In this document: one piece after another, positions 2,520 through 55,538 of the stretch | Position numbering within the stretch: the first letter of the stretch is position 1 | Layout of the letters: each line of letters begins with the position of its first letter | DNA from: Gammaproteobacteria bacterium | GTDB lineage: Bacteria > Pseudomonadota > Gammaproteobacteria > JABABF01 | Reading direction: 5' to 3' | Assembly: GCA_965237805.1 (NCBI GenBank) | Contig: OZ250153.1 | Location: forward strand, 256,001 to 320,000 | DNA: 64,000 bases | Program-made: the position numbers and the translations under genes | The notes under the pieces: generated by a model | What the model saw: the letters and a program-made list of their open reading frames with translations, nothing else | What the model was told of the DNA's origin: nothing | Database searches by the model: none

Positions 2520-5500
2520 TCACCACGGGTAGTCGAACCAAGCACGCACCATACTCTCAACATTCAGCAGCTCGTCCACATCGCGTTTGATGACCGCAGC
2601 GCGACCGCAGGCGGTCGGCGAATCCAATGCCAAGCGCACCGCATACAGCACCCGAGCGTCGGCGGTTTCCACCGCACCGATACCCACACGCACCGCGCCC
2701 AATCCCTGCGCGAGCAGCCGCTTGGCGGTGCGCTCGGCACTCTCAATATTGGCATAGGCCGCCACCTGCACATACCAGCCGCGGTTGCCGCGCACTGTGT
2801 CCAAGCAAGCACAAACCGATGCGCTCGGTCGCTTGCAGGGGGATGGTATCGAGGCGGAAACCAGCTGACGGCGCGACGGCGCTGACTGTTCAGTCCGCTC
2901 AGCGCGCTCGACCCGCTGCTCCCGGCGCCGACTCGCCGTCTGCGGGTCGCGGCGCGGCGCTGTCACAGCAGCGCTGGCATCATTGAAGCGATAGCTCAGC
3001 CCGGCACCGGCAAAAGCGGCACCAGCATCGTAGTCTTCGTAGAAGATTTTCAGCGCCAAACCGCGGGCCGGGTTACCAGCCAGATCCAACTCCATGCCCA
3101 GCCCCCAGTAGAGGTCATCGTCGTTCTTGACAGCTACCGCAAACTGTCTGGACTTGGCATCGCCGCTGCGCCAGCCCAGCGCAGCATAGGGCGACCAGCG
3201 GCGATCGCGGCCATAGGGAAACCAATTCACCCCCGCCCCGGCAGCCGTTTGCTCGACGCCGCCGCAGGCGGTCGCATTGCAGACTCTGGACTCGCCCAAA
3301 TCCGCCCAAAAACCTTCCAACCACAGATCTTCCAAGGTGATGACAAAAAGCGGCAGCTTGAATGGCAGCGCGTAGTCGACGCCAACACGGTAGGCAAAAT
3401 CCTCCTGATCATCCAAGCGGAAAGTGTTGCTCTGTAGTGAGGGCTTCAAAAAACTCTGCCCCACCGCTCCGCTGATGCCGAAGTCGAGGGCAGCGGCCGT
3501 CGCAGGCAGGCTCAGGCACAGCGAGAGCAAGGCCGCACCAGCCATCGCAACGCCGCGCCGATGCCACTGGCCGCTGCGGCCAAGGCTCAGGAGCAACATC
3601 AGTGCGAGCAGCGCCAACCAAGGCAGCCCAATCGTGCCGCCACCGCCGCGGAAAACCACCACCTCGCTACCGCTCGTCGCCTGCATTCCTATCGGGCTAA
3701 AGGAGTCGGACGTGCCGCTGACATGCACACAGCCGCCATTGGACAGAGCGCCGACCGCCAGCGACAGCAGCGGGAGATAGGCCGCATCGCCGGGTGCCGG
3801 GCAAGCCCTGCCGTTCGTTCCAGCGACGCTGAGATACGGCGAGAATGTCACCGTATTGACCACGATTACCGTCGCGCTGCTCGTGCCGGGGCCACTGTCG
3901 ATCGTGATCGTGCGCTGGCTGGTATCCACCTCGCACCAACTGGCCGTCGCCGCACTGGGGCAAGTGCTGGAATAGTGATACAACTTGTCAGTGCTGATCG
4001 CTCCATCGACCGAGAACACAAAGTTGATCAAGTCGCCAGCCGAAAAACAGGCTGCGCTATCACCGCAACTGAAGGACACATCGAGTACCAAGTTATCGAC
4101 GAGGCTCACTGGCAGCGGCGCGATGCCCAGTGCGGCAAACTCGCTCAGCGGCACACGGGGCGAGTTTGCCCCCGAGCGCCGCGCCGCGATATCACCCAGA
4201 CGCAGGATGATCCCCGGCGCAACGAGCATAAAGTGCGCGTTGGCTGTGCCGGCGCTGTCGCTGAACGGCAGGGCCGAGTTGATCAATGCCAAGCCGGGCG
4301 CTTCCAGCTCATCCGGAATCAAGTCGCCGTCGCTGTCCAACTGGCCAACGCTAAAGACTCGCTGCAAACTCTCGCCCGCGCTCACGGCCCCAATGCGATA
4401 CACCGCCGCGTTGCTGCCGAAAACACTGCCTGCCACACTGTAAGTGCCAGCCAACGCCACCTCCGGCGTCGCTGGTGTCGAAGAGCCGAGCACGCTGAGT
4501 GTCCAAGTGCGAGTGCCATTCACAACGCTGCCAGACACCGAGAACTCCACCCCCGCCGCAGGATCGGCAATGCTCTGCAACAGCGCGCTGCTCCCGCTCT
4601 GGCGCAGCTGGATCACCGGTGCATAGGCCGCCACCGCACGCAGCGCTGGCTGATAAACAATGCTATAAGTCGTGCTCGCCGAACAGCTGGCAGAAAAAGA
4701 GCACAGCGACACCAGATCGCGAGACGAAAGGTCCAGCTGCACGGTGGCCGCCACCGTCAGGGTCGAGGTGCTCACCGTGTAGCCCACCGCTTGCTCCACA
4801 GCACCCGACAGCGACAGGCTGCTCGCCATCAGCGCCAAACCAGAGCTGCTGAGACTCAGCGCCACTGCCCCGTCACCGTCGGGCTGCGCTCCCAATAACT
4901 GCAATCTCATGCTGCCCGAGCCGCCCGCTATCACCGAGAGATCGCCGCCTACCGACAATATTGGCCGCAGAGCCAAGCGCCAGATCACCGCATCGCTCGC
5001 TGCGCTGCCAGCGGACAGCCAGTGTGTGCCCGACACATAGTTGTGGCTGTCCGCTGCTGGCAGCACCCCACCCTGATAGACACCAGCGCTGATATGCACC
5101 ACCGAGTCCAGCGGCAGGCTCAGCGACGCCGTGCCAGAAGTGAATGAGGCAAAGTCCGTCAGCACACCGCGCGCGTTTTGGCGCGGCAAAACCGTCGCCG
5201 CGCTACTCAACTCGTCGCGACGACCGTAGTACAGCTCCACCACATCTGGCAAGCCGTCGCTATCGGCATCCGTCGCCGCAGAGGCCCCTGTCGTGTCCGA
5301 CAGATCGCTGTTCAGATAGGCTTCCAAACTGTCCGACAGGCCATCGCCGTCCGTGTCACAGCTGCTGGCAGCGCCCGGGCAGGCCACTGTCAAACCGCCA
5401 ACAGGCATGAAATCGTATTCCAAATCGTCCGACAAGCCGTCGTTATCGGCATCTGTCAGCGAGAATGCCGCCGTGTTCAGCAGCACTGGTGCGCTGGTGG

Positions 5501-8177
5501 CCGTACTGCCACCAGCATCCTCCACTACGAGGAAGACGCAATAGGCCGTGCCCTGCGAGAGCGCGTTGAGCTGCCCGCTACCGCCGGTGGCGCTCAAACT
5601 CAGCTGGGAGGACATCGTCGTGATCGAGGCGATGGCGCAAGTCGTGCCAGTGTGGAAGGCCAGCCAATAACTGGCGGCCGTGTCGATGGCCGTCGCCGCC
5701 TCGCTCAGCTGCGCGCGATCGCTGGCCAATTCGCTGAACAGCAGGGTCGCCGAATAAGCCCGCAACTCGGCGCTGTCCACCGATAGACACGGGCTCGCCA
5801 CACTGTCCAAGTCGCCATCGCAGATGCTCGGGGGCACCACCACTCCCAACACCGTGAAACTCGTCGGAATGGGCAGGACGATTTCAGCAGTCGCCGCGAT
5901 CGTTGCCGTGGACATGATTGCCAGCGTCAATGACGTACTCGATAGCCCCGTCGGCAGAGCGGGCAGCATGACGTTCAGCGAAAATTCGATCAGCGGGACG
6001 CTGATGCCACCAATCTGCACTGTATTCGCCGGTGCCGTGAGCGTCACAGCGCCAGCGACGGGCGCGCTGCAAGGAGAAGAGGAAGACTGGCATCCCAAAA
6101 CCCCAGACACCGCGAGCTCAATGGTGGCGGACACATCATCTAAGTCGTAGACATCAAGGGTAGAAGCCGCGTCGAGCCGCAGCTCGGCGACACTTAGATA
6201 ACTGCCCGCAAACACATAGCTGCGGTTGTGCAACAGCATCGCGGGATCGACCACGCTACCACCAAAACTGGCCGAGACCGCATCCCGCGTCGCCAACCGG
6301 CTGCCCGTCACATCCATACTGAGCGTGAGATTGACCGTGTTGCTGCCAGCAGAGCTGGGGGCGGGAATGCTCGCGACCACCGTGCCATGATCCTGCGAAG
6401 AATAATAGCTAATCTCTCTGACATAGCCAAAAGTGCCCGCCTCAGATGACAGCACACAAAAGGTCTCCGCCGGGGTCTCCGCCACGCCGCTGCAATTGGC
6501 AAAGCCTGCGTTGAACCCTGTATTCAGCGCCGAAGAGCTCAGGTCTTGGTTCAGATCGAACTGCAAATTCCTATCTCGAGCGGAGATAGTCAAGCGCAAA
6601 GTATTCCGCTCGATATTGGCACCATCTCGATAGCGATAGGTGGCCGCATACGGCGTGCTAATACCATCACCAGTCAGATCAATGGTGGCAAAGGAAGCAG
6701 TGACAGTCGTGATGGACTCCAAACGCAGCTCGGTGCCCACCACCGCCATGGTGACGCTGCCGACGGTGTTTGTTGCCGTCGCAAAGCGGCTGCTGATGAC
6801 ACCGGCAGGTTGCCCAATCTCTGAGGGGCGCAGCTCCAGCATCAGCCGCGAGCCGTCGACGATATCGTTGATATTCAGAGTGCTGACGACGTCAATCACC
6901 ACCGCAAAGACCCCCAAACGCTCGCTGCCACCGTCGGCGATGACCAGCGGCGTCGCCAACCCTAGGACAACAGTCGCTTGGCTGGAAGCGCGCGCTAGGA
7001 GCCGTAAACCTACTATCCCCGTCGCCAGTGCAGGGCCCACAGCAGCGCCCCCGGCATCGATGCGGAAAAGGTGGTAATTCAGACTTGGCACAGCCCGCTG
7101 GGAGTCAGCGGGGAGGACTAAAGCACTATAAAATGGCGTAATCGCCTCACTGCCCACACTCACACGCAGCGTCACTGTACTGATGCGGGTGACAACACCA
7201 TCACCACCACCATCGGCGATGGCCAGCGCCAATATCGCTGTCAAGCTGCTCGACACGCTGTCGAGCTCGATGCTGGTGCCATAGATCGCGCTCGTGAGAT
7301 CGCTGATCGTCGCCGCATCGTTGGCTGTCGCCACCGTAGCCGTCAGCGTTGAGCCCAATACCGTGAGCACAGCGGTTGACGCACCGCTGGTATAACTGTC
7401 AACAAAGGGATCTAGCAAGTCGGTGCCATCGCCGTCAGGCACCTCGATCGCATGATAGAGCTGGCGTGCGTAGCTGGGCGCAAGCTCCAAATTGACTGCA
7501 CGCAAGCGCAGCGTCAACAAATCCGGGTACGTGCACAACTTGCACTGCAACCTGGAATTAGGATTCGACGGCGCTTTCAGAACCAATGTGTTCTGCCACA
7601 AACTCACCATATCCGTCTCACCACTCGGGGTGATCGTGACCAGCGTCGTCGAGTAGCTCGCCGACGCAAAGATATCCTCAAGCGATCCCTCACCGCTGAG
7701 CGACACGCTGGCATCCGTGCTGAAACTGCGCGCCGTCGTATCCGTCAGCTCGCCTGTGCCCGCAATGATCGCACCGCCTGCGCCCTCCACCACAAAACCA
7801 GCTGCCACACCGTGCCCATCTGCGCCCGGCACCGAATACCACGACAGCGCCATGCCCCAAGTCAGCACACCATTGGGTGTGCCCGCCCCCAATACAGTAT
7901 CACCAGCATCGGTGGAGACATGTTGCAAGCCGATATCGAGCTCAAAAGCACTGTTGTCCAAGACCGAAAAAGTGCTGTCGGTGGCAGTGGTCACCGAATC
8001 TTGGGTCGCCGATGCCCCCAATAGCAACCGATAAGTGGATGCCTCGGCTGTGCCAGACATCAATCCCAAGCACAATGCCAACGCCAACGCCAATGCCCGT
8101 GTCAGCGCCAGTGAAAAAACCGCGGCCTGCGGTGCCAATAAATCGTGGCAGCTGCGCCCTAACTGTTGCAGTTTCAT
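2520..8177 (-). CDS. Giant secreted/surface protein, copy A (1885 aa): Ser/Thr-rich modules, TSP3-like repeats, internal GlyGly-CTERM-like segment, OMP beta-barrel, C-terminal SPOR domain
   Basis: ORF 2520..8255. Start placed at MKLQQLG (8177) from the GGAG RBS and identity with the copy B start. Signal peptide ending ...GTAEA; DADNDGLSDDLE/DTDGDGLSDSLE/DADSDGLPDVVE motifs; GGGGTIGLPWLALLALMLLL; barrel-like ...GLSYRF; SPOR-like GWYVQVAAYAN..SAE. Confidence 0.85.
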   Translation of the reverse strand: MKLQQLGRSCHDLLAPQAAVFSLALTRALALALALCLGLMSGTAEASTYRLLLGASATQDSVTTATDSTFSVLDNSAFELDIGLQHVSTDAGDTVLGAGTPNGVLTWGMALSWYSVPGADGHGVAAGFVVEGAGGAIIAGTGELTDTTARSFSTDASVSLSGEGSLEDIFASASYSTTLVTITPSGETDMVSLWQNTLVLKAPSNPNSRLQCKLCTYPDLLTLRLRAVNLELAPSYARQLYHAIEVPDGDGTDLLDPFVDSYTSGASTAVLTVLGSTLTATVATANDAATISDLTSAIYGTSIELDSVSSSLTAILALAIADGGGDGVVTRISTVTLRVSVGSEAITPFYSALVLPADSQRAVPSLNYHLFRIDAGGAAVGPALATGIVGLRLLARASSQATVVLGLATPLVIADGGSERLGVFAVVIDVVSTLNINDIVDGSRLMLELRPSEIGQPAGVISSRFATATNTVGSVTMAVVGTELRLESITTVTASFATIDLTGDGISTPYAATYRYRDGANIERNTLRLTISARDRNLQFDLNQDLSSSALNTGFNAGFANCSGVAETPAETFCVLSSEAGTFGYVREISYYSSQDHGTVVASIPAPSSAGSNTVNLTLSMDVTGSRLATRDAVSASFGGSVVDPAMLLHNRSYVFAGSYLSVAELRLDAASTLDVYDLDDVSATIELAVSGVLGCQSSSSPCSAPVAGAVTLTAPANTVQIGGISVPLIEFSLNVMLPALPTGLSSTSLTLAIMSTATIAATAEIVLPIPTSFTVLGVVVPPSICDGDLDSVASPCLSVDSAELRAYSATLLFSELASDRAQLSEAATAIDTAASYWLAFHTGTTCAIASITTMSSQLSLSATGGSGQLNALSQGTAYCVFLVVEDAGGSTATSAPVLLNTAAFSLTDADNDGLSDDLEYDFMPVGGLTVACPGAASSCDTDGDGLSDSLEAYLNSDLSDTTGASAATDADSDGLPDVVELYYGRRDELSSAATVLPRQNARGVLTDFASFTSGTASLSLPLDSVVHISAGVYQGGVLPAADSHNYVSGTHWLSAGSAASDAVIWRLALRPILSVGGDLSVIAGGSGSMRLQLLGAQPDGDGAVALSLSSSGLALMASSLSLSGAVEQAVGYTVSTSTLTVAATVQLDLSSRDLVSLCSFSASCSASTTYSIVYQPALRAVAAYAPVIQLRQSGSSALLQSIADPAAGVEFSVSGSVVNGTRTWTLSVLGSSTPATPEVALAGTYSVAGSVFGSNAAVYRIGAVSAGESLQRVFSVGQLDSDGDLIPDELEAPGLALINSALPFSDSAGTANAHFMLVAPGIILRLGDIAARRSGANSPRVPLSEFAALGIAPLPVSLVDNLVLDVSFSCGDSAACFSAGDLINFVFSVDGAISTDKLYHYSSTCPSAATASWCEVDTSQRTITIDSGPGTSSATVIVVNTVTFSPYLSVAGTNGRACPAPGDAAYLPLLSLAVGALSNGGCVHVSGTSDSFSPIGMQATSGSEVVVFRGGGGTIGLPWLALLALMLLLSLGRSGQWHRRGVAMAGAALLSLCLSLPATAAALDFGISGAVGQSFLKPSLQSNTFRLDDQEDFAYRVGVDYALPFKLPLFVITLEDLWLEGFWADLGESRVCNATACGGVEQTAAGAGVNWFPYGRDRRWSPYAALGWRSGDAKSRQFAVAVKNDDDLYWGLGMELDLAGNPARGLALKIFYEDYDAGAAFAGAGLSYRFNDASAAVTAPRRDPQTASRRREQRVERAERTEQSAPSRRQLVSASIPSPCKRPSASVCACLDTVRGNRGWYVQVAAYANIESAERTAKRLLAQGLGAVRVGIGAVETADARVLYAVRLALDSPTACGRAAVIKRDVDELLNVESMVRAWFDYPW

Positions 8178-8367
8178 GGAATGTCTCCAGTGGCTAAACG
8201 CTAGATGGGCTGGCGTGCCTGCAAGAGCGCAACGACGATCACCAGCTCTTGCCAAGCGCCTATTCTAACAAATTCAGTATGCTATTCGCAATACGGCGAT
8301 GCGTAGCAAACGCGATGCTGTGCCAAAGTCGCGATCTGCCTCTGAGCGAGGAGCCTGTAGCGCTCGC

Positions 8368-9627
8368 TCAGAGGCCGGCGCGCTGCTCGATGCGCACGAT
8401 GATATTGAGCTCTTCGTCGATCAGGGCCGGAATGCCAGCCACCACGACACCAGAAAAGGTGCCGTTCTTGATCAAGGTGCGGAAGGACGCCGTAAAGCCC
8501 AGTGTGCGGAACATCATCAAGGCATCCGTTTGGTCGACATCGCCGTCGAGATCAATGTCCAAGACACTGTTGGAGCTGGCCTCAAGAGCCTCAATACGCT
8601 CAATGATATTGAGCTCTTCGTCGATCAGGGCCGGAATGCCAGCCACCACGACACCAGAAAAGGTGCCGTTCTTGATCAAGGTGCGGAAGGACTCCGTAAA
8701 GCCCAGCGTGCGGAACATCATCAAGGCATCCGTTTGGTTGACCGTGTCGCTGAGATCGATATCGAGCTGCAGGAGGTCGAATACCAGCAGTTCGACGGTG
8801 CCGCTCAGCGTGCCATCGCTCACCGTCAACACGATCGTGCTGCCGTCGCTCAGCCCCTCCAGCTGCAGGCTGAGGCTGGTGGAGGATGCCTGCGACAAGG
8901 CGCTCAGAGTCCCCATCGAGATGCTCACTGTCACCGTGTTGGGAAGCACGTAGCCCGAATCCACATTCGCGGCGGCATCGACAGCAAATATCTGCACCGT
9001 CAAGGGCGTCTCTACAAGTACCGGGGACGGCGCTGTCAGGAGCAAGGCGACGGGCAGCACGATCAACATGGTCTGTGCCACCGCGCTCAGCGAGCCGTCG
9101 ACCACTGTCAAGCTCAGCAGCTGGGCGCTAACTGCCCCGCTGAGAGACAAGCTCAGACTGCTGGCCGTGCGCGCGTGCTCCATCAGCGCACCGGATGAGG
9201 GCGTGACCGTCGCCGCGGGCGACAGGCGGTAGTCGCTGTCCTCGTTGTCGTCGTTGTCCACGCCGCGCACGCTCAGCGCAAAAGTACTATGGCCGCTCAC
9301 AGTGGCCGGCAAGCCGAGGCTCAGGCGGCGCGTTTGCACAGTGAACTCTAAGTCTAGCTGCCCCGACAGCACACCGCTGCTGAGGCTGAGGCGCAAGCTG
9401 GTGTTTTCCACCACCCCACCCCCAAGCCGCACCGTCAAGGCATTGCTCGTGCTGGCATCCACCACCCAGCGCACGGGGCCCGGCACCACTTGCGCCAGCG
9501 CTGGCGGGATGGCAGCCAGTGCCAAGGCCAAGCTCAGAGCCGATGCCATGAGCCAGAGGATGCCGTTGCCGTGCGTGGGGCAAGCCCTGCTGGCGCTGCG
9601 GGGCTCAGAGGGGGCGAATCGATGCAA
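8368..9627 (-). CDS. Secreted protein with Ig-like repeats and two C-terminal dockerin/EF-hand-like repeats
   Basis: 419-aa ORF; signal-like ALSLALALAAIPPALAQ; twice-repeated LDIDL(S/D)xxV(N/D)QTDALMMFRTLGF. Start uncertain. Confidence 0.7.
   Translation of the reverse strand: MHRFAPSEPRSASRACPTHGNGILWLMASALSLALALAAIPPALAQVVPGPVRWVVDASTSNALTVRLGGGVVENTSLRLSLSSGVLSGQLDLEFTVQTRRLSLGLPATVSGHSTFALSVRGVDNDDNEDSDYRLSPAATVTPSSGALMEHARTASSLSLSLSGAVSAQLLSLTVVDGSLSAVAQTMLIVLPVALLLTAPSPVLVETPLTVQIFAVDAAANVDSGYVLPNTVTVSISMGTLSALSQASSTSLSLQLEGLSDGSTIVLTVSDGTLSGTVELLVFDLLQLDIDLSDTVNQTDALMMFRTLGFTESFRTLIKNGTFSGVVVAGIPALIDEELNIIERIEALEASSNSVLDIDLDGDVDQTDALMMFRTLGFTASFRTLIKNGTFSGVVVAGIPALIDEELNIIVRIEQRAGL
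8399..8738. repeat. Intragenic direct repeat, ~136 bp near-identical, 204-bp period (8399-8534 / 8603-8738)
   Basis: ATGATATTGAGCTCTTCGTCGATCAGGG...GGCATCCGTTTGGT occurs twice. Confidence 0.9.
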
Positions 9628-9749
9628 TGGCAGCTGCCAGTGGGTGGACGGGGATCATTTTAAGCGATGCGAGCGCTGCGATAGCGGGACTGCGGGCGGC
9701 GCGACTGCGGTGCGATGCGCCGGACACACGACACTCGCTAGGCACGCTG

Positions 9750-10190
9750 CTATGTACTGCTGCTGGTGGCACCGCCGTCGGTGGCGGGCACCAAGCGCAG
9801 GGAGGCAGAGTTGATGCAATAACGCAGGCCAGTGGGTGGCGGGCCATCGTTGAAGACATGCCCCAGATGGGCATCGCAGACCGCGCAACGCAGCTCCTCG
9901 CGCGCCATGCCGTGGCTGGTGTCGCGGTGATTGCTCAGGCGAGCTGCTGGTGCCGGGGAATGGAAGCTGGGCCAACCCGATCCCGAATCAAATTTGCCAG
10001 CCGAGTCGAATAGGGGCGCATCACAACAGCGGCAACGGTAAGCACCGGCTGTCTTAGTCTCCCAATAGCAGCCGCTGAAAGCTGGCTCTGTCCCCCCTTG
10101 ACGGCAGATCCGATAGCTGTTGTCGTCCAGCTGTGAACGCCACTGCTCGTCGCTTAGGGCACGCGGGTCGCCAGCGGGAAAACTCTCCAT
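9750..10190 (-). CDS. msrB: Peptide-methionine (R)-S-oxide reductase MsrB
   Basis: C-terminal part of ORF 9750..10967: [43 protein letters not shown]. Start at MESF. Confidence 0.93.
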
Positions 10191-10352
10191 AGGCAGAATT
10201 ATACGCATAAGCACTGCGCCTCTTGCGGCTGCCAGCTGCTCGGCGACACCATACAATAAGCGTGGCTGAGGGCGGCTCGGCAACGGCTCGGGCGTCGCAG
10301 CCAGCCGCAGCGCAGCTCCCCGGCCCCACCACCGCAGAGCGCAAGCCAAACC

Positions 10353-11582
10353 GTGTCCCAACAACAGCCCACAAGCCTGCGCAAATCTTCCCTGCTCGAC
10401 GATATTTGCTACGATCTGCGCGGCCCCCTGTTGCAGTGCGCCAGCTCGATGGAGGAAGAGGGGCACACGATCCTCAAGCTGAACATCGGCAACCCCGGTG
10501 TCTTCGGCCTCGATGCGCCCGATGAGATACTGCGCGATGTCATCGCCAATCTGCGCCAAGCACAGCCCTACAGCGAGTCGCACGGTCTGTTTCCGGCGCG
10601 CAAGGCGATCATGCAGCACTGCCAGCAACAAGGGGTGCAGCAGATCGATGTCGAGGACATCTTCTTGGGCAATGGCGTCAGCGAGTTGATCCAGATGGCG
10701 GTGCAGGCGCTGCTCAACCCGGGCGATGAGTTGCTGATACCATGCCCGGACTACCCGCTGTGGAGCGCCGTCACCAGACTGGCCAATGGGGTGCCACGGT
10801 ATTACCGCTGCGTCGAAGAGGCTGGCTGGCAACCCGATTTGGATCATCTGCGCGCACAGATTTCGCCGCGCACCCGTGGCATCGTCGTGATCAATCCCAA
10901 CAATCCCACCGGCGCAGTCTATTCCGCTGAGCTGCTGAGGGGGATCGTCGAGCTGGCCCGCGAACATGACTTGCCGCTATTCGCCGACGAGATCTACGAC
11001 AAAACCCTCTACGAGGATGCCGAGCATGTGCCGCTGGCCAGACTGGCGGGCGAGCTGTGTTGCCTCAGCTTTAGCGGGCTGTCAAAGAACTACCGCTTGG
11101 CTGGCTTCCGCAGCGGCTGGATGATCGTCAGCGGCGATCGCCGCCGCAATATCGACTACCGAGAGGGGCTGCTACTGTTGGCATCGATGCGCCTATGCGC
11201 CAATGTGCCAGGCCAGCTGGCCGTGCAGACCGCCTTGGGCGGGCACCAGAGCATTGCGGATTTGGTCGCGCCCGGCGGTCGCCTGCGCGAGCAGCGCGAC
11301 CACGCTTGGCGGCGCATCGATGCCATGGAGGGGGTCTCCTGTCACCGGCCACAGGGGGCGATCTACCTGTTTGCGCGCTTTGACAGCGAGTATTTCGGCA
11401 CCGTCGATGACGAGCAGCTGGCGCTGGCTCTGTTGCGTGAGGAGAAGATGCTACTGACCCCAGGCAGCGCTTTCAACTGGCCACATCCCGACCATCTGCG
11501 GCTGACTTTCCTGCCCACCATCGATGTGATGGAGGACGCGATGAACCGCCTTGAGGGCTTCCTCAGCCGACGCGGTGGCTGA
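10353..11582 (+). CDS. alaA: PLP-dependent aminotransferase (AlaA/AlaT type)
   Basis: [54 protein letters not shown]. Confidence 0.9.
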
Positions 11583-11680: not shown

Positions 11681-11692
11681 CAAGAAAATCTC

Positions 11693-12342: not shown

Positions 12343-12897
12343 GCTGGCTATCACCAAGCACTGCCCGCTCCACCGCCACCCACACCCTCGTCGCTTGCCC
12401 CGTTGCCGCTCGGCCGGTGCAGACTGGCCCCTAGGCTTGGCAACAACAGTCACCCGCTGATTGTCGCTCTATTTGCTTCTGCCAGCTCAGTCCCTCAGCC
12501 ACTCATAGATCATCGTCTTGCCGCTCATGGCGGTAAAGAGCGCATGGGTCTATGGCTGCCAGCGCACAGCACCCAGCATTGAGCCTTGATGCGAACTCAA
12601 TAGCGCCCGCAGTGCTGCTGGCTATCACCAAGCACTGCCCGCTCCACCGCCACCCACACCCTCGCCGCTTGCCCTGTTGCCGCTCGGCCAGTGCAGACTG
12701 GCCCCTAGGCTGGGCAACAACAGTCCCCCGCTGATTTGCCCGCTCTATTTGCTTCTGCCAGCTCAGTCCGTCAGCCCCTCATAGATCATCGTCTTGCCGC
12801 TCGGCGGTAAAGAGCACATGGGTCTATGGCTGCCAGCGCACAACACCCAGCATTGAGCCTTGATGCGAACTCAATATCGCCCGCAGTGCTGCTGGCT
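12343..12897. repeat. Non-coding tandem duplication, 2 x ~274 bp, hairpin-rich
   Basis: GCTGGCTATCACCAAGCACTGCCCG starts at 12343 and again at 12617; the copies differ by scattered substitutions and small indels. Confidence 0.92.
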
Positions 12898-12938: not shown

Positions 12939-14153
12939 CTATTTTGCTGCTGGCAATGACGGTGTCAGTTGCAAAAAGCCAGCGGCGCGCAGCATGCGCT
13001 GGGTGGCGAGGGGCAATGACTGCGCCAGCAGCGGCAACTCGGAGAACTCCAGCCGCGGTGGCGGCGCGGCGCGGGCGGCGGCGAAACCCTGTGCAGTATC
13101 GTCTGGCGTGGCTGCCAGCAGCGTGCGCAACTGGCGATCCAGCTCCTCTAGTGGGCAACAATAGGCGCTGAGCCGCTGCAGCAAAACCGGGAAGTTCTGA
13201 GCATCCTCCGCGCGCAAGCATAGCGGCTCCACTGCGGGGATCACCGGAGCTGGCTCGGCTGCTGTCTGTGCCCCGCTCGCCCCTGCCGAGCTCAGCGCTG
13301 AGGGGTCTGGTGCCCCTAAATGCTGGCAAGCGGCCTCGTAGAGTAGCGCCAGCGCACGGCGGCGGGCACTGGCGGTGTGGCCAGCGATGTGGGGGGTCGC
13401 CAGATGGACGCAGGCCAGCAAATCTGAGTCGATGGCCGGTTCGCCCTCCCAGGTGTCCAGCGCCAATCGCGGTGCGCCAGGGGCAGCTGAGCGCCGGAGC
13501 AGTGCCTCGCTGTCGATCAGCGCGCCGCGGGCGCTGTTGATCAGCAGCGCCCCAGAACGCAGCTGCGCCAAGGCCTCAGCCCCGATCAGATGGCGATTGC
13601 CATCGCTTAGCGGCAAATGCAGGCTGATCGCATCCGCGGCGGCCAGCAGCTCCGCCAAGGGCCTGCTGGGTAGCTCGGCGGCGCGCAGTGGGTCGCAGAT
13701 CAGGCAGCGCAACCCCAATGCCTCAAGGCGACGGCGCAGGCGGTCGCCGCTGTGGCCGCAGCCGACGATGCCCACCGTCAGTTGCGGCGGCGCCGATGGA
13801 AATCCCGGCAGCTGGTGGCACAGCACCGACAGCACATAATCCACCACCGCTTCGGCATTGCAGCCCGGAGCCGCCGCCCAAGCGATGCCGCGCTGGCGCA
13901 GACAGCGCACGTCGATGTGCTCGACCCCGCTGGTCGCGCTACCGACAAAACGCAGGCCCGTCGCCCCGTCCAGCAAGGCATCGTCGACCCGTGTGACCGA
14001 GCGCAGGATCAACAGTCTCAGCGAGGGCGGCAAGGGGGCGACGATGGCCGCCGCCGGGCGGGGCTCTACCGGGCCAAAGGCTGCGAAGCGCTGTGCTGCG
14101 CCCGGCAAAGCCTCATCGACCACCACCCGCGGGCCCGCGCCGTCGGCGCTCAA
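12939..14153 (-). CDS. pdxB: Erythronate-4-phosphate dehydrogenase
   Basis: LRSVTRVDDALL, FVGSATSGVEHID, APGCNAEAVVDYV, INSARG, LDTWEGEP, ATPHIAGH. Confidence 0.88.
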   Translation of the reverse strand: MSADGAGPRVVVDEALPGAAQRFAAFGPVEPRPAAAIVAPLPPSLRLLILRSVTRVDDALLDGATGLRFVGSATSGVEHIDVRCLRQRGIAWAAAPGCNAEAVVDYVLSVLCHQLPGFPSAPPQLTVGIVGCGHSGDRLRRRLEALGLRCLICDPLRAAELPSRPLAELLAAADAISLHLPLSDGNRHLIGAEALAQLRSGALLINSARGALIDSEALLRRSAAPGAPRLALDTWEGEPAIDSDLLACVHLATPHIAGHTASARRRALALLYEAACQHLGAPDPSALSSAGASGAQTAAEPAPVIPAVEPLCLRAEDAQNFPVLLQRLSAYCCPLEELDRQLRTLLAATPDDTAQGFAAARAAPPPRLEFSELPLLAQSLPLATQRMLRAAGFLQLTPSLPAAK

Positions 14154-14174
14154 GGTGGCGGCAAAGCCATGGCT

Positions 14175-14480
14175 TCAGCTGTGCGACGCTGCGGGGCCGC
14201 CCTTGCGGATCAAAAAATACAGCTTGCGGTCGCGCTGTTGCGAGGGCTGCGAGGCGCTGAGCAATTGATGCCCCAAATGGTGGCAAAATCTCTCCACATC
14301 GCGCTGGGTCGAGGGATCGGTGGCACAGAGCCGCAACAGCTCGCCGCGACGCAGGCGACGGATCTCGCGGTGCAATAGCATCAGTGGCTCGGGGCAGGAC
14401 AGACCGCAGACATTGAGCTGGTGCACCGCCTGCGCCGTTCCATCGCTGCTGTCGGACTGTTTGTTGGCTGCGCTACTCAT
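14175..14480 (-). CDS. tusA: Sulfur carrier protein TusA
   Basis: LNVCGLSCPEPLMLLHREIR...ATDPSTQRDVERFC (CPxP motif). Confidence 0.9.
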   Translation of the reverse strand: MSSAANKQSDSSDGTAQAVHQLNVCGLSCPEPLMLLHREIRRLRRGELLRLCATDPSTQRDVERFCHHLGHQLLSASQPSQQRDRKLYFLIRKGGPAASHS

Positions 14481-14560
14481 TGACTGTAGCTCGCCAAAAG
14501 TGCGGCGTCGAGCTGGCGCAAGCCCCGCCACAGACCACAGATTTTAGTGGCTACTCGAAC

Positions 14561-17500
14561 TCACCACGGGTAGTCGAACCAAGCACGCACCACACTCTCA
14601 ACATTCAGCAGCTCGTCCACATCGCGTTTGATGACCGCAGCGCGACCGCAGGCGGCCGGCGAATCCAATGCCAAGCGCACCGCATACAGCACGCTACCAT
14701 TATCCCTGTCCACCGCGCCGATGCCGACCCGCACCGCGCCGAAGCCCTGTGCCAAGAGCTTCTGGGCGGTACGCTCGGCGGCCAAGACATTGGCATAGGC
14801 CGCCACCTGCACATACCAGCCTTGATGGCCGCGCACTGTGTCCAAGCAAGCACAAACCGATGCGCCCGGTCGTGTGCAAGGAGAGCTCAGCGCCGAGATA
14901 TAGCTGGGCCGCTGGCTGGTGGGCTCGGGCCGCGTGCGCTCTGGGCGACGGGGGAGCTCCTCCCGACGGCGTGCGCTCGCCTGTGGGCGGCGGCTGGGCG
15001 CGGCATCCTCGGCAGCGCCATTGAAGCGATAGCTCAGCCCGGCACCGGCAAAAGCGGTGCCGAGGTCGTAATCTTCGTAGAAAATTTTCAGCGCCAAACC
15101 GCGGGCCGGGTTACCAGCCAGATCCAACTCCATGCCCAGCCCCCAGTAGAGGCCATCGTCGTTCTTGACAGCTACCCGCCACTGTCTGGACTTGGCATCG
15201 CCGCTGCGCCAGCCCAGCGAAGCATAGGGTGACCAGCGGCGATCGCGGCCATAGGGAAACCAATTCACCCCCGCCCCGGCAGCCGTTTGCTCGACGCCGC
15301 CGCAGGCGGTCGCATTGCAGACTCTGGACTCGCCCAAATCCGCCCAAAAGCCTTCCAACCACAGATCTTCCAAGGTGATGACAAAGAGCGGCAGCTTGAA
15401 TGGCAGCGCGTAGTCGACGCCAACACGGTAGGCAAAATCTTCCTGATCATCCAAGCGGAAAGTGCTGCTCTGTAGTGAGGGCTTCAAAAAACTCTGCCCC
15501 ACCGCTCCGCTGATGCCGAAGTCGAGGGCAGCGGCCGTCGCAGGCAGGCTCAGGCACAGCGAGAGCAAGGCCGCACCAGCCATCGCAACGCCGCGCCGAT
15601 GCCACTGGCCGCTGCGGCCAAGGCTCAGGAGCATCATCAGTGCGAGCAGCGCCAACCAAGGCAGCCCAACCGTGCCGCCACCGCCGTGGAAAACCACCAC
15701 CTCGCTACCGCTCGTCGCCTGCAATGCCAGCGGGCTCAAGGAGTCGGACGTAGCGCTGACATGCACACAGCCGCCATTGGACAGAGCGCCCGCCACCAGC
15801 GACAGCAGCGGGAGATAGGCCGCATCGCCGGGTGCCGGGCAAGCCCTGCCGCTCGTTCCAGCGACGCTGAGATACGGCGAGAATGTCACCGTATTGGCCA
15901 CGATTACCGTCGCGCTGCTCATGCCGGGGCCACTGTCGATCGTGATCGTGCGCTGGCTGGTATCCACCTCGCACCAACTGGCCGTCGCCGCACTGGGGCA
16001 AGTGCTGGAATAGTGATACAACTTGTCAGTGCTGATCGCTCCATCGACCGAGAACACAAAGTCGAGCAAGTCGCCAGCCGAAAAACAGGCTGCGCTATCA
16101 CCGCAACTGAAGGACACATCGAGTACCAAGTTATCGACGACGCTCACTGGCAGCGGCGCGATGCCCAGTGCGGCAAACTCGCTCAGCGGCACACGGGGCG
16201 AATTTGCCACCGGGCGCTGCGCCGCGATATCACCCAGACGCAGGATGATCCCCGGCGCAACGAGCATAAAGTGCGCGTTGGCTGTGCCGGCGCTGTCGCC
16301 GTACGGCAGGGCCGAGTTGACCAATACCAAGCCGGGCACTTCCAGCGTATCTGGAATCAAGTCGCCGTCGCTGTCCAACTGGCCAACGCTAAAGACTCGC
16401 TGCAAACTCTCGCCCGTGCTCTCGGCCCCAATGCGATACACCGCCGCGTTGCTGCCGAAAACACTGCCTGCCACACTGTAAGTACCAGCCAACGCCACCG
16501 ACGGCGTCGCTGGTGTCGAAGAGCCGAGCACGCTGAGTGTCCAAGTGCGAGTGCTATTCACAACGCTGCCAGACACCGAGAACTCCACCCCCGCCGCAGG
16601 ATCGGCAATGCTCTGCAACAGCGCGCTGCTCCCGCTCTGGCGCAGCTGGATCACCGGTGCATAGGCCGCCACCGCACGCAGCGCTGGCTGATAAACAATG
16701 CTATAAGTCGTGCTCGACGAACAGCTGGCAGAAAAAGAGCACAGCGACACCAGATCGAGAGACGCATTGTCCAGCTGCACGGTGGCCATCACCGTCAGGG
16801 TCGAGGTGCTCACCGTGTAGCCCACCGCTTGCTCCACAGCACCCGACAGCGACAGGCTGCTCGCCATCAGCGCCAAACCAGAGCTGCTGAGACTCAGCGC
16901 CACTGCCCCGTCACCGTCGGGCTGCGCTCCCAATAACTGCAATCTCATGCTGCCCGAGCCGCCCGCTATCACCGAGAGATCGCCGCCTACCGACAATACT
17001 GGCCGCAGCTCCAAGCGCCGGATCACCGCATCGCTCGCTGCGCTGCCAGAGGACAGCCAGTGTGTGCCCGACACATAGTTGTGGCTGTCCGCTGCTGGCA
17101 GCACCCCACCCTGATAGACACCAGCGCTGATATGCACCACCGAGTCCAGCGGCAGGCTCAGCGACGCCGTGCCAGAACTGTTGGTGAATGAGGCAAAGTC
17201 CGTCAGCACACCGCGCGCGTTTTGGCGCGGCAAAACCGTTGCCGCGCTACTCAACTCGTCGCGACGACCGTAGTACAGCTCCACCACATCTGGCAAGCCG
17301 TCGCTATCGGCATCCGTCGCCGCAGAGGCCCCTGTCGTGTTCGACAGATCGCTGTTCAGATAGGCTTCCAAACTGTCCGACAGGCCATCGCCGTCCGTGT
17401 CACAAGCAGCGTCCGGGCACACTGTCAAACCGCCAACAGGCATGAAATCGTATTCCAAATCATCCGACAGGCCGTCGTTATCGGCATCGGTCAGCGAGAA

Positions 17501-20500
17501 TGCCGCCGTGTTCAGCATCACCGGGGCGCTGTACACCGTACTGCCACCGGCATCGCGCACTGCGAGGAAGACGCAATAGGCCGTGCCCTGCGAGAGCGCG
17601 TTGAGCTGCCCGCTACCGCCGGTGGCGCTCAAACTCAGCTGGGAGGACATCGCCGTGATCGAGGCGATGGCGCAAGTCGTGCCAGTGTGGAAGGCCAGCC
17701 AATAACTGGCGGCCGTGTTGATGGGCGTCGCCGCCTCGCTCAGCTGCGCGCGATCGCTGGCCAATTCGCTGAACAGCAGGGTCGCCGAATAAGCCCGCAA
17801 CTCGGCGCTGTCCACCGATAGACACGCGTTCGCCACACTGTCCAAGTCGCCATCGCAGATGGTCGGGGGAACCAGATCGGCGCTGAGGGTGAATTCGCTC
17901 GGCGCGGGGATGCTGCTGTAGGCGCTCCCAGACTGGAGGGCGATCGTCAAACTCAGGGTGCTGCTGAGCAGCCCGCTCGGCAACTGCGCAAAAGCAAAAC
18001 CTCCACTGGAGGGTGCCGTGAAACTGATCACGCCGCGCTCAGCAGCAGCAGCCACCGTCACCATCGCTGTCGTCGTCGCACTCAGCGGAGAGAGCGGCGT
18101 ACAGCCGCCGCCATCGCTGGTGCAGGATAGCTGCGGTGTCACTGTCAGCGATAGTCCGGATGGATCGCGATCGTAGACCTTGGCCGTGGAATCGTTGAAA
18201 GCGGGGCTAGTGCCGCTCAAATCAACGTTCAGAAAAGCGTGATAAGTGCCACTAAAGCTGTAACTGGCGTCGTGGATCAGCGAGCTGCCCGCCACCGCGA
18301 TGCCCGTGCTGCTGTTCCGCGCCGTCACCGCCGCCAAGGTCTCCAAACTGTCGGCGCTAACATTCATGGTGACCGTCACTTGGTTCTCAGCAGTCGTGAA
18401 CACCCTTTGACGACCATCAATCGGGGAGAAATACAGATTCCGGACATGGCCAGATGACAGGATCTCCTCCTGGTGCTCCACATCCGTATCACCGCTCACA
18501 ACGAGAGCCTGCGCAGACAGATCCGCGTTCAGATCAAGCTGCCCGCTGGCATCTCGGCTACGCAGGTTCAACACAACAACATTGGCAGTCGACGCCGCGC
18601 CGCTGCCGGCGCGGAAGTCGGTTTGCACCGCAAAACCTGCAGCGGTGCTGCCAGTGACGCTGGGGGCACTGCCAACACTGACGCTGTCGATCGCCACCGT
18701 CGTGCCAATCACCTCCATGCTGAGCCTGTTCTCCAGCGTGCCGCCACTGAAAGCGCCACTGCCGAAGACGCCAGCAGTTGCCGGTGATACCCGCAGCCGC
18801 AGCTGCCCTGCATCCACCGCATCGCTACTGAGCAATGCGCTGTGGTTGGCCACCGCAGCCGTCAACAGCAGCTGGGCCGTGCCGCCCTCGGCAATGCTCA
18901 GCGGCGTGCCGAGCGTCAGGCGAATCATCTGCTCGCCAGAGGACACGCGCGCCAAGGCCGTGACTGTCGCCGCCAGCACTGCCCCCGTGGCGTTGCCAGC
19001 GGCATCCGCCGCATACAGATTCAAAGTCAGCGCCGGCACCACACCGCGCGTCAAAGCGCTGTCGATGCCAGCAACGATGGGTGCAATGCCGCTGTCTTCA
19101 GCCAACAGACTCAATAACACGGAACTGATCGCGACACCCATACTGTCCCCCGCACCCTCGGCAAAACTCAGCGCCATCACCCGCTGCTCTGTGCTCCCCA
19201 AGACATTGCTCAGCGTCGCCTGGCCGATGTCGATCAAACTCACCGTCGTGGGCACCACTCCCAACACCGTGAAACTCGTCGGAGTAGGCACTGTCAGGGC
19301 GATGCCACCAGTCGCCGTGGACATGATTGCCAGCGTCAATGGCGTGTCCAATAGCCCCATCGGCAGAGTGGGCAGAGTGATGGCCAGCGAAAATTCGATC
19401 AGCGGGACGTCGATGCCGTCAATCTGCACTGTATTCGCCGGTGCCGTGAGCGTCACAGCGCCAGCGACGGGCGCGCTGCAAGAAGAATCTAACTCGCATC
19501 CCAAAACCCCAGACACCGCGAGCTCAATGGTGGCGGACACATCATCTAAGTCGTAGACAGGAAGGATAGTAGCCGGGCCGGTCTGCAGCTCGGCGAAACT
19601 CAGATAACTGCCCTCAAACATATAGCTGCGGTCGTGCAACAGCATCGCGGGCTCGACCGCGCCACCACCAAAACTGGCCGAGACCGCATCATGCGTCTCC
19701 AACCGGCCGCCCGTCACATCCATACTGAGAGTGAGATTGACCGTGTTCTCGAAGACAACATGGGGGGAGGGAATGCTCGCGACCACCGTGCCATGATCCT
19801 GCAAAGAATAATAGCTAATCTCTCTGACATAGCCAAAAGTGCCCGCCTGCAATGACACCGCACAACGGGTCTGCCCCCCGCCGCCGCTACAACCGGAAAA
19901 ACCTGTGTTGAACCCTGCATTCAGCGCCGAAGAGCTCAGGTCGCTGTCCAGATCGAGCTGCCCTTTACTATCTCGACTGACCACAGTCAAGCGCAAAATA
20001 TTCTGCGCGACAGTGACACCACCATCTCGGTAGCGATAGGTGGCCGCATACGGCGTGCCAATACCATCACCAGTCACATCAATGGTGGCAGAGGAAGGGA
20101 CAGTCGGCATGGAGTTCAAACGCAGCACGGTGCCCACCACCGCCATGGTGACGCTGCCGACGGTGTTTGTTGCCGTCGAAAAGCGGCTGCTGATGACACC
20201 GGCAGGCTGCACAATCTCTGAGGGGCGCAGCTCCAGCATCAGCTGCGAGCCGTCGACGATATCCGCTCTACTCTGCAGCCCATCCAAGGAATCCGGAAAC
20301 GCAAAGAGCCCCAAACGCTCGCTGCCACCGTCGGCGATGACCAGCGGCGACACCAACGTGACAACAAGCGATTGGGTGGGTCTGCGCACACTGAGCGAGT
20401 CAGCAGTCAGCGTCGCCAGTGCAGCACCCACAGCAGTGCCCCCGGCATCGATGCGGTGAAGGTTGAAATCCAGACTTGGCACAGCATGCTGGGAATTTTC

Positions 20501-21559
20501 GGGGAGGGCTAAAGCACTATAAAGTGGCGTGACCACCGCACTGCCCACACCCACACGCAGCGTCATTGAACTGATGTGGGTGTCAATGCCATCACCACCA
20601 CCATCGGCGATGGCCAGCGCCCATATCGGTGTCGCGCTACTCGACGCGGTGTCGAACTCGATGCTGGGGCCATAGATCTCGCTCGTGATATCGCTGATCG
20701 TCGCCGCATCGTTGATCGTCGCCACCGCAGCCGTCAGCGTTGAGCTCAATCTCGTGAGCGTAGCAGCTGACACATTGTTGGTATAACTGTCAACAGAGGC
20801 AACCAGCAAGTCTGAGCCATCGCCGTCAGGCACCCTGACCGCATGATAGAGCTTGCGTGCGTAGCTGGGCGCAGACTCCAGATTGACTGCACGCAAGCGC
20901 AGCGTCAACAAATCCGGGTGCCTGCAAAACTTGCACTGCAACATGGAAGTAGCATTTTGCGCTGCCAGAACCAATGTGTGCTGCCACAAACTCACCATAT
21001 CCGTCTCACCACTCGGGGTGATTGTGACCAGCGTCGTCGAGTAGAGCACAAAAGGAAAGATATCCTCAATCGATCCCCCACCGCTGAGCGACACGCTGGC
21101 ATCCGTGCTGAAACTGCGCGCCGTCGTGGACGTCAGGAATACTGTGCCCGCAATGATCGCACCGCCTGCGCCCTCCACCACAAAACCAGCTGCCACACCG
21201 TGCCCACCAGTGCCCGGCACCGAATACCACGACAGCGCCATGCCCCAAGTTGTCACAAGATTTTCGTCACTCGCCCCCAATGCAAAGTCACCAGCATCGG
21301 TGGAGACATGTTGCAGACCGATATCAAGCTCAAAAGCACTGTTGTCCAAGACCGAAAAAGTGCTGTCGGTGGCAGTGGTCACCGAATCTTGGGTCGCCGA
21401 TACCCCCAATAGCAACCTATAAGTGGATGCCTCGGCTGTGCCAGACATCAATCCCAAGCACAATGCCAACGCCAATGCCCGTGTCAGAGCCAGTGAAAAA
21501 ACCGCGGCCTGCGGTGCCAATAAATCGTGGCAGCTGCGCCCTAACTGTTGCAATTTCAT
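14561..21559 (-). CDS. Giant secreted/surface protein, copy B (2332 aa); paralog of 2520..8177 with one extra ~460-aa module
   Basis: Same start, RBS and domain order as copy A; C-terminal ~1100 aa nearly identical; extra module at ~17873-19250. Confidence 0.85.
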   Translation of the reverse strand: MKLQQLGRSCHDLLAPQAAVFSLALTRALALALCLGLMSGTAEASTYRLLLGVSATQDSVTTATDSTFSVLDNSAFELDIGLQHVSTDAGDFALGASDENLVTTWGMALSWYSVPGTGGHGVAAGFVVEGAGGAIIAGTVFLTSTTARSFSTDASVSLSGGGSIEDIFPFVLYSTTLVTITPSGETDMVSLWQHTLVLAAQNATSMLQCKFCRHPDLLTLRLRAVNLESAPSYARKLYHAVRVPDGDGSDLLVASVDSYTNNVSAATLTRLSSTLTAAVATINDAATISDITSEIYGPSIEFDTASSSATPIWALAIADGGGDGIDTHISSMTLRVGVGSAVVTPLYSALALPENSQHAVPSLDFNLHRIDAGGTAVGAALATLTADSLSVRRPTQSLVVTLVSPLVIADGGSERLGLFAFPDSLDGLQSRADIVDGSQLMLELRPSEIVQPAGVISSRFSTATNTVGSVTMAVVGTVLRLNSMPTVPSSATIDVTGDGIGTPYAATYRYRDGGVTVAQNILRLTVVSRDSKGQLDLDSDLSSSALNAGFNTGFSGCSGGGGQTRCAVSLQAGTFGYVREISYYSLQDHGTVVASIPSPHVVFENTVNLTLSMDVTGGRLETHDAVSASFGGGAVEPAMLLHDRSYMFEGSYLSFAELQTGPATILPVYDLDDVSATIELAVSGVLGCELDSSCSAPVAGAVTLTAPANTVQIDGIDVPLIEFSLAITLPTLPMGLLDTPLTLAIMSTATGGIALTVPTPTSFTVLGVVPTTVSLIDIGQATLSNVLGSTEQRVMALSFAEGAGDSMGVAISSVLLSLLAEDSGIAPIVAGIDSALTRGVVPALTLNLYAADAAGNATGAVLAATVTALARVSSGEQMIRLTLGTPLSIAEGGTAQLLLTAAVANHSALLSSDAVDAGQLRLRVSPATAGVFGSGAFSGGTLENRLSMEVIGTTVAIDSVSVGSAPSVTGSTAAGFAVQTDFRAGSGAASTANVVVLNLRSRDASGQLDLNADLSAQALVVSGDTDVEHQEEILSSGHVRNLYFSPIDGRQRVFTTAENQVTVTMNVSADSLETLAAVTARNSSTGIAVAGSSLIHDASYSFSGTYHAFLNVDLSGTSPAFNDSTAKVYDRDPSGLSLTVTPQLSCTSDGGGCTPLSPLSATTTAMVTVAAAAERGVISFTAPSSGGFAFAQLPSGLLSSTLSLTIALQSGSAYSSIPAPSEFTLSADLVPPTICDGDLDSVANACLSVDSAELRAYSATLLFSELASDRAQLSEAATPINTAASYWLAFHTGTTCAIASITAMSSQLSLSATGGSGQLNALSQGTAYCVFLAVRDAGGSTVYSAPVMLNTAAFSLTDADNDGLSDDLEYDFMPVGGLTVCPDAACDTDGDGLSDSLEAYLNSDLSNTTGASAATDADSDGLPDVVELYYGRRDELSSAATVLPRQNARGVLTDFASFTNSSGTASLSLPLDSVVHISAGVYQGGVLPAADSHNYVSGTHWLSSGSAASDAVIRRLELRPVLSVGGDLSVIAGGSGSMRLQLLGAQPDGDGAVALSLSSSGLALMASSLSLSGAVEQAVGYTVSTSTLTVMATVQLDNASLDLVSLCSFSASCSSSTTYSIVYQPALRAVAAYAPVIQLRQSGSSALLQSIADPAAGVEFSVSGSVVNSTRTWTLSVLGSSTPATPSVALAGTYSVAGSVFGSNAAVYRIGAESTGESLQRVFSVGQLDSDGDLIPDTLEVPGLVLVNSALPYGDSAGTANAHFMLVAPGIILRLGDIAAQRPVANSPRVPLSEFAALGIAPLPVSVVDNLVLDVSFSCGDSAACFSAGDLLDFVFSVDGAISTDKLYHYSSTCPSAATASWCEVDTSQRTITIDSGPGMSSATVIVANTVTFSPYLSVAGTSGRACPAPGDAAYLPLLSLVAGALSNGGCVHVSATSDSLSPLALQATSGSEVVVFHGGGGTVGLPWLALLALMMLLSLGRSGQWHRRGVAMAGAALLSLCLSLPATAAALDFGISGAVGQSFLKPSLQSSTFRLDDQEDFAYRVGVDYALPFKLPLFVITLEDLWLEGFWADLGESRVCNATACGGVEQTAAGAGVNWFPYGRDRRWSPYASLGWRSGDAKSRQWRVAVKNDDGLYWGLGMELDLAGNPARGLALKIFYEDYDLGTAFAGAGLSYRFNGAAEDAAPSRRPQASARRREELPRRPERTRPEPTSQRPSYISALSSPCTRPGASVCACLDTVRGHQGWYVQVAAYANVLAAERTAQKLLAQGFGAVRVGIGAVDRDNGSVLYAVRLALDSPAACGRAAVIKRDVDELLNVESVVRAWFDYPW

Positions 21560-55535: not shown

Positions 55536-55538
55536 GCG

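Follow-up and report, generated by a model that had tools for sequence, protein, structure and literature searches.

Likely gene conversion and possible selection for divergence in a pair of giant envelope-protein genes of a gammaproteobacterium

How do two copies of a gene stay nearly identical over most of a very long coding region and at the same time come to differ in many short stretches of one part of it? The question is posed by a 64-kb stretch of a gammaproteobacterial chromosome (the window; guanine plus cytosine (G+C) content about 63%), which carries two genes for giant envelope proteins, copy A and its longer paralog copy B (Table 1). The two genes are not in tandem, and those for MsrB, an aminotransferase, PdxB and TusA lie between them. 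A first-pass annotation of this DNA had described an alternation of near-identical blocks and changed patches over roughly the first 780 amino acids (aa), and this alternation recurs in our alignments, with the three pairs of patch sequences quoted there found exactly as written. We consider it rather probable, though well short of certain, that A and B are paralogs of old origin, that gene conversion has homogenised them, and that selection has favoured differences between their amino-acid sequences in the N-terminal region.

A and B were compared in a global protein alignment and a codon alignment, and their likeness proved to be a mosaic of segments (Table 1). The C-terminal 1100 aa or so, previously called almost identical, deserve that description over about 930 aa (93-96% identity) but not in the 150-aa tail of charged linker and SPOR domain, where only 102 of 149 aa (68.5%) and 73.2% of nucleotides (nt) agree. 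The extra module of B is an old duplicate of the module of about 450 aa just before it and has 33% identity to A in a four-sequence alignment. As had been noted for several patches, the short indels are in frame: over the whole alignment, 14 of 14 are multiples of three, so the patches are not read in another frame, and compensated frameshifts are ruled out as their source. Neither open reading frame (ORF) contains a stop codon (0 in 1885 codons of A and 0 in 2332 of B), which together with the in-frame indels indicates that both are under selection. Within the hydrophobic core of the signal peptide, A carries one more copy than B of a 6-nt unit, TTGGCG (8088-8093), which lengthens A by one Ala-Leu pair and is suggestive of slippage at a repeat.

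The homology between the two copies is bounded by the coding regions, starting 16 nt 5' of the ATG, at the ribosome-binding site, and ending about 11 nt past the stop codon; beyond these points the flanks are unrelated. Further information on the age of the two loci comes from one more relative, P0005, a 2030-aa protein encoded on a 9-kb contig (locus L001) of a Gammaproteobacteria metagenome-assembled genome. The gene order of that locus (small gene, giant gene, TusA, PdxB) is the same as at the B locus, and its small gene shares 65 of 130 residues with the gene upstream of B, matching the gene upstream of A over 34 residues only. Because the relative shares both the gene order and the upstream ortholog of B, we place B at the ancestral locus. 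The pairing of a small and a giant gene found at the A locus is also kept there, and the gene upstream of A is a distant paralog of the one upstream of B (one shared domain, 30 of 61 residues identical). In age, the A and B loci appear roughly comparable to the split from the lineage of the metagenome-assembled genome. Yet in a three-way alignment B is 84% identical to A and P0005 42% (29% over matched N-terminal stretches, 37% in the BLASTP alignment). Since the loci are old and the coding regions nevertheless so alike, we conclude that the pair has probably undergone concerted evolution by gene conversion: the copies resemble each other more than their loci and orthologs allow, silent divergence is mosaic and the homology has sharp boundaries. 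The tail would be a segment that escaped conversion. Segmental gene conversion, as first suggested for this pair, is supported as the homogenising force on the framework but is not demonstrated as the source of the patches.

An artefact of assembly, with A and B being strain alleles of a single locus misplaced at two sites, has no result in its favour and is raised only because the sequence may be metagenome-derived. It is very improbable given that the flanks cease to be related immediately outside the ribosome-binding site and the stop codon, that each copy has housekeeping neighbours of its own, that the 460-aa module occurs in B alone, and that the protein database places both proteins, each in a cluster with one member, on one 1,725,584-nt contig.

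What sets the N-terminal region apart is the kind of change it has accumulated. By the Nei-Gojobori method it holds 249 nonsynonymous and 63 synonymous differences, in agreement with the earlier remark that the changes in one patch are mostly nonsynonymous, and its nonsynonymous divergence per site (dN, 0.162) exceeds its synonymous divergence (dS, 0.113). The corresponding dN and dS are 0.033 and 0.038 in the middle and 0.23 and 0.50 in the tail, so that the N-terminal region shows about five times the amino-acid change of the middle. Codon models fitted to the pair by maximum likelihood (F3x4, with a likelihood-ratio test against an omega, or dN/dS, of 1) gave an omega of 1.63 for the N-terminal region (test statistic 10.2, p=0.0014) and 1.70 for its mature part (p=0.0007), values that did not differ significantly from 1 for the middle (1.04) and for the helices plus barrel (0.93), and 0.36 for the tail (p=1e-5). 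Silent change follows a different pattern. Four-fold silent sites differ at 16 of 350 positions in the N-terminal region and at 14 of 523 in the middle (p=0.18), against 19 of 71 in the tail (p=6e-11 relative to the middle). Because their four-fold divergence is alike, the N-terminal and middle regions appear to be of the same silent age and to differ in amino-acid change alone. The diversifying selection proposed in the first-pass annotation is thus supported, with the excess of amino-acid-changing differences confined to the N-terminal 730 aa or so, where dN exceeds dS in one sequence pair and in models of whole regions rather than sites. Of 170 columns at which the copies differ, the outgroup P0005 agrees with A in 19 and with B in 21, which argues that change is spread over both copies and that neither alone is drifting; nor does either resemble a duplicate in decay.

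The differences are also far from evenly distributed. In the N-terminal DNA, perfect runs of up to 75 nt are interrupted by stretches 5-47 nt long, where roughly every second base differs. Among 2345 aligned columns there are 341 differences, 141 of which adjoin another (mean 50 and maximum 75 in 2000 random placements), and there are 11 identical runs of at least 40 nt (mean 0.6 and maximum 4 under random placement). This patchiness is far beyond chance, and it carries on at lower density in the middle region (3687-5837), where smaller clusters of amino-acid change occur, for example in the 30-codon windows from A aa 871, 1139, 1289 and 1469. From the amino-acid differences we defined 27 patches comprising 168 alignment columns; since such a definition itself raises omega inside the patches, the patch value of 2.6 is not relied on. 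Of the patch codons with different amino acids, 36% have a changed third position, and the mean is 1.62 nt differences, compared with 68% and 2.0 in the tail and 71% and 2.27 in random codon pairs; most patches are therefore not old saturated sequence. In 17 patches (95 codons, at least 50% nt identity) the differences per codon position 1/2/3 are 0.38/0.45/0.17, and several patches change at positions 1 and 2 alone, such as alignment columns 668-676 with 4, 5 and 0 differences. No motif was apparent at the patch borders, where the top 4-mers and 5-mers lie inside the random range. The variable regions of both copies (5838-8036 and 19253-21424) have a third-position G+C of 0.66-0.67, below that of the middle region of these genes (0.75) and of most neighbouring housekeeping genes (0.70-0.85).

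Selection for divergence would account for these observations as follows. A and B would be old paralogs of a lineage-restricted giant cell-envelope protein, with the ancestral locus occupied by B and another one by A. The coding regions would be kept nearly identical over most of their length by recurrent conversion between them, which would leave the linker and SPOR tail unconverted, while the first 730 or so mature residues would replace amino acids faster than silent sites change. The replacements would fall in at least 27 short patches, in both copies and with the reading frames intact, and the most likely cause would be selection for A and B to differ in their N-terminal part. As this part probably lies at the far end of the protein from the membrane anchor, it would likely face a ligand, phage or predator. 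It would then be exposed at the surface, its patches may contact a ligand, and conversion events that erase patches may be selected against. If true, the pair would be a clear-cut natural example in which conversion holds paralogs together and selection parts very short stretches, with both forces acting in one gene pair and in a family without recognisable domains in its variable part. The pair would mark the N-terminal 730 aa or so, at defined positions, as the part that meets a variable environment, be it a ligand, a phage or a grazer.

Several results, in this paragraph and the next, tell against selection as the cause or limit what it explains. The rates come from the pairwise comparison of just two sequences. 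Omega can be inflated by models that ignore multinucleotide mutations (10.1101/165969), and two or three differences are present in 80 of the 723 N-terminal codons. Because of this possible inflation, the test was rerun on codons with a single difference, among which 106 nonsynonymous and 22 synonymous differences remain in the N-terminal region (omega 2.0, p=0.0018, for a neutral nonsynonymous fraction of 0.706), as opposed to 36 and 13 in the middle (omega 1.15, not significant) and 11 and 23 in the tail (omega 0.20). The omega of the middle is itself close to 1, and recent changes on which purifying selection has acted weakly may therefore make up part of the signal. The chief finding that lends selection no support is that patches defined by nt density, rather than by amino-acid differences, differ 47, 48 and 36 times at codon positions 1, 2 and 3, which by our own reckoning is not clearly non-uniform. 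In addition, the patches are not enriched outside the strands of a low-confidence predicted model (62 of 167 patch positions in strands, 215 of 566 in the framework), or at indel sites defined by comparison with P0005 and with the internal module copy (14 of 27 patches, with 15.1 expected), and the outgroup match is only moderately lower in patch columns (32 of 136) than in framework columns (169 of 534). The model in question, an AlphaFold prediction of the N-terminal 761 aa from a 4-row alignment, has a mean predicted local distance difference test (pLDDT) score of 33, and the first-pass picture of exposed loops resembling the complementarity-determining regions (CDRs) of antibodies finds no backing in these structural checks. 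The near-neutral middle, the multi-hit codons, the even codon-position split and the lack of preference for indel sites or non-strand positions would all suit an explanation without selection, in which a weakly constrained exported part tolerates mutational clusters from multinucleotide mutation or from error-prone synthesis in conversion or repair. We regard this as unlikely, since omega is 2.0 even without the multi-hit codons, the in-frame indels and absence of stops point to selection on both ORFs, several patches change at positions 1 and 2 alone, and only the N-terminal third is clustered in this way although the whole gene is open to conversion.

A second set of results concerns the ten patches (63 codons) that are near random in identity, with 0.65/0.67/0.51 differences per codon position (0.72/0.74/0.70 in random pairs) and nearly equal length in both copies; these look like replaced or very old segments rather than the products of point changes. 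They could be imports, that is, short conversion tracts from diverged donors, whether population alleles or silent partial copies elsewhere in the 1.7-Mb genome, that overwrite short stretches in the manner of cassette-based variation. The equal lengths (36 and 36 nt at A aa 426-437; 21 and 21 nt at 99-105 and at 606-612) would agree with this, as would the raised proportion of differing synonymous sites (0.26 inside patches, 0.065 in the framework). We nevertheless judge an origin of the patches by import to be unlikely as well. Each patch sequence was found only at its own place in the window (whole-patch search with 1-4 mismatches); non-self 11-mer matches number 33, within the range of shuffled sequences (mean 24.3, maximum 49); no protein matching the N-terminal region, whether of 1282-4081 or of 30-1281 aa, was found in a database of 5.8 billion protein clusters; and the other 95 patch codons keep their third positions, unlike imports from diverged donors. 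The second module of B was tried as a patch donor and rejected, as among 121 differing columns it agrees with A in 20 and with B in 21, which is no bias. Antigenic variation, which the first-pass annotation had considered, is likewise not borne out: there are two full-length copies only, with no donor fragments in the window, no shorter database homologs and no adenine bias in the substitution spectrum. Because ten patches are near random in identity and conserved in length, we leave a small probability to a targeted process that writes the patches, either micro-conversion that uses short hidden donors elsewhere in the genome or population as templates, or a local hypermutation that goes along with conversion. 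If that were true, this would be a giant envelope protein of an uncultured gammaproteobacterium with about 27 CDR-like variable stretches. Rewriting by a diversity-generating retroelement, which the localised variability and nothing further would recommend, was rejected as next to impossible. The differing positions fall in copy A on all four bases with no adenine bias (G 82, C 78, A 69 and T 61 of 290; 149 transitions to 141 transversions), and the 27 dispersed patches are unlike one C-terminal variable repeat with a template copy. Nor was a reverse transcriptase family found in a Pfam scan of 32 ORFs of the window, picked from those of at least 250 aa together with a 118-aa and a 240-aa ORF.

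Conversion with selection for divergence, which we continue to favour, concerns a protein of uncommon build. On the N-terminal 761 aa, Pfam recognised no family even at an E-value of up to 10. The middle contains calcium-binding Asp-rich repeats, with sub-threshold TSP3-like matches and a 27-residue match to a calcium-binding-loop profile; the latter, to Binary_toxB, covers 27 residues of an Asp-rich calcium-binding loop only and is no indication of a toxin. Further along lie two hydrophobic helices, the first preceded by a GGGG motif and the second resembling a signal peptide that ends in Ala-Ala-Ala, as read from the sequence and a low-confidence model. An OmpA-like barrel match (OMP_b-brl) follows. 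In P0005 this family (PF13505) also matches over the whole profile (E 6.5e-6, 26.9 bits against a 28.7-bit cut-off), and the region has a pLDDT of 20-35 in the predicted model, where the barrel fold is not recovered. A charged linker leads on to the C-terminal SPOR domain (PF05036), which scores above its 21-bit cut-off in all three proteins (A 26.4, B 25.1 and P0005 27.2 bits). Over the C-terminal 406 aa (3 alignment rows) the AlphaFold model has a mean pLDDT of 36; the SPOR part alone reaches 60-77, with the order beta-alpha-beta-beta-alpha-beta.

A single ORF thus joins a 1500-aa exported region to two helices, a barrel match and SPOR (2523-3695 in A, 14564-15736 in B), an architecture unusual in itself, and as the same arrangement is present in the outgroup (about 6389-7801 of L001) it is not a sequencing accident. 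The architecture suggests a precursor that is cut by signal peptidase into two envelope proteins. In such a case the second helix could act as an internal signal peptide whose cleavage frees an OmpA-like barrel-SPOR anchor, and the giant exported part would then be held by the first helix. From this layout the protein may be a surface adhesin or receptor. The Gly run, hydrophobic helix and basic cluster resemble a sorting signal by eye, in a segment that is internal rather than C-terminal; searches for GlyGly-CTERM, PEP-CTERM and MYXO-CTERM signals gave MYXO-CTERM as the best match (E 2.4, 8.6 bits against a 20-bit cut-off), and NCBIfam had no significant match to the whole protein or to the sorting-like segment. 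Autotransporter barrels, RTX repeats and a type 1 secretion signal were also sought, and no such Pfam family was found (whole proteins at E of at most 0.1, pieces at E of at most 10).

The family is rare. Among about 5.8 billion protein clusters, 1.84 billion representatives and 185,579 species genomes, three members were found, namely A, B and P0005, and the database held no shorter proteins similar to the C-terminal region. The best score in the ESM Atlas was 0.82, below the level of a lead, and a sequence search of the PDB with the family profile returned weak matches alone, to a segment of the metalloprotease Mcp02 (E 0.004) and to the SPOR domain of RlpA (E 0.3).

Table 1. Coordinates and properties of the features described (positions in the window; omitted where the feature is defined by comparison of A and B).
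Feature	Position	Strand	Description
Copy A	2520-8177	-	1885-aa giant envelope protein; ATG at 8177; begins MKLQQL; database entry P0003
Copy B	14561-21559	-	2332-aa paralog of copy A; ancestral locus; followed by TusA, then PdxB
Signal peptide, A vs B			45/45 aa identical; 97.8% nt identity
A N-terminal variable region, aa 48-780	5838-8036	-	Holds the 27 patches; 537/723 aa (74.3%) and 85.8% nt identity to B
B N-terminal variable region, aa 46-769	19253-21424	-	Counterpart of A 5838-8036
A middle, aa 781-1497	3687-5837	-	667/714 aa (93.4%) and 96.6% nt identity to B aa 1230-1945 (15725-17872)
A aa 1498-1707			201/210 aa (95.7%) and 97.6% nt identity to B
A diverged tail, aa 1708-1857	2607-3056	-	Charged linker and most of SPOR; compared with B aa 2156-2304 (14648-15094)
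Last 28 aa, A vs B			27/28 aa identical; 98.8% nt identity
Extra module of B alone, aa 770-1229	17873-19252	-	460 aa; diverged internal duplicate
Two hydrophobic helices, about aa 1517-1531 and 1538-1561	3495-3629	-	Basic loop between; conserved in outgroup
OMP_b-brl region (PF13505)	2985-3536	-	Full profile length; E 1.4e-5, 25.8 bits (cut-off 28.7)
Promoter-like site 5' of A	8262-8291	-	9/12 matches, TG extension; consensus match alone
Promoter-like site 5' of B	21666-21694	-	10/12 matches, TG extension; consensus match alone
Small gene 5' of A	8368-9627	-	419-aa secreted protein; Ig-like segments, two dockerin-like repeats
Gene 5' of B	21902-22700	-	Ortholog of the L001 small gene; appears frameshifted and truncated

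Around the two genes, a few further features were seen. Upstream of its ATG, the ORF of A stays open to a TTG at 8255, and the promoter-like sites of A and B sit in mutually unrelated upstream sequence, in line with both copies being maintained. The gene upstream of A contains a 174-nt internal duplication (8386-8559 and 8590-8763, 91% identical, 204 nt from start to start) whose two halves each encode a dockerin-like repeat of calcium-binding type (Pfam Dockerin_1, E 1.3e-4, just below the cut-off). Upstream of B, an ORF with a signal peptide (22395-22700) overlaps a 240-aa ORF (21902-22624) in a different frame, and the product ends about 270 aa short of its ortholog at L001.

The remainder of the window includes genes for SMC, DksA, an H+-pyrophosphatase, PFK, Mpl, Era, LepB, LepA, a P450 and oxaloacetate decarboxylase, besides those already named, and genes of F420 biosynthesis. 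The latter form a coenzyme F420 cluster (42392-47318) of an FbiC-like radical SAM fusion, CofC, CofD and an F420 ligase, embedded in an otherwise gammaproteobacterial-looking chromosome. At 52000-56000 the G+C content falls to 57-58% beside a tRNA-Ser gene (53238-53328), and this stretch, which carries a 526-aa ORF (53553-55133) without a family match, may be a small island. The intergenic stretch between the aminotransferase gene and pdxB contains a 274-nt unit twice in tandem (96-97% identical, 12343-12897), and a 141-nt unit is likewise doubled (97% identical, 63705-63986) close to the end of the window.

A conserved frame with hypervariable stretches is a pattern of known kind in paralogous or allelic envelope proteins, met here in an essentially unknown family. 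In the Opa proteins of Neisseria the variable parts are termed semivariable and hypervariable regions. As here, several copies per genome share a conserved frame with short hypervariable stretches, and their variation is attributed to recombination among copies together with positive selection (PMC5020929). Opa proteins are small 8-stranded barrels with three variable loops and about 11 copies, whereas here there are two giants with at least 27 patches over 730 aa; unlike in Opa, the patched region has no recognised fold, and no sign of phase variation or of a host was seen. Wsp of Wolbachia, also an envelope protein in which short variable stretches alternate with conserved ones, has four hypervariable regions between conserved regions, a pattern attributed to recombination and diversifying selection (PMC2843615). 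Wsp varies between strains at a single locus, our pair between two paralogs in one genome. Discrete variable regions in a conserved frame are likewise found in Treponema pallidum TprK, for which seven V regions are given (PMC10269439), in Borrelia VlsE and in Neisseria pilE/pilS. Those systems need an expression site and many silent donors, of which none were found here in the window or the protein database.

With regard to the anchor, OmpA-type proteins join an 8-stranded barrel to a periplasmic peptidoglycan-binding domain, and the C-terminal 340 aa resemble them in a full-length but sub-threshold match to the OMP_b-brl profile, with a peptidoglycan-binding SPOR domain behind it that scores above threshold. 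Unlike in OmpA, SPOR takes the place of the C-terminal domain, and the module is fused behind two helices to the 1500-aa exported region; we know of no described counterpart in which helices, barrel and SPOR are fused to an exported giant region, though the literature was not searched for one. Finally, the pair resembles bacterial paralogs in concerted evolution, of which tuf and babA/babB are examples: its copies are more similar than loci this old would lead one to expect, their homology stops at the limits of the gene, and silent divergence forms a mosaic. Homogenising conversion is distinguished from diversifying conversion in the literature (PMC3924843). What separates A and B from plain concerted evolution is that homogenisation here coexists with many very short islands of amino-acid divergence.

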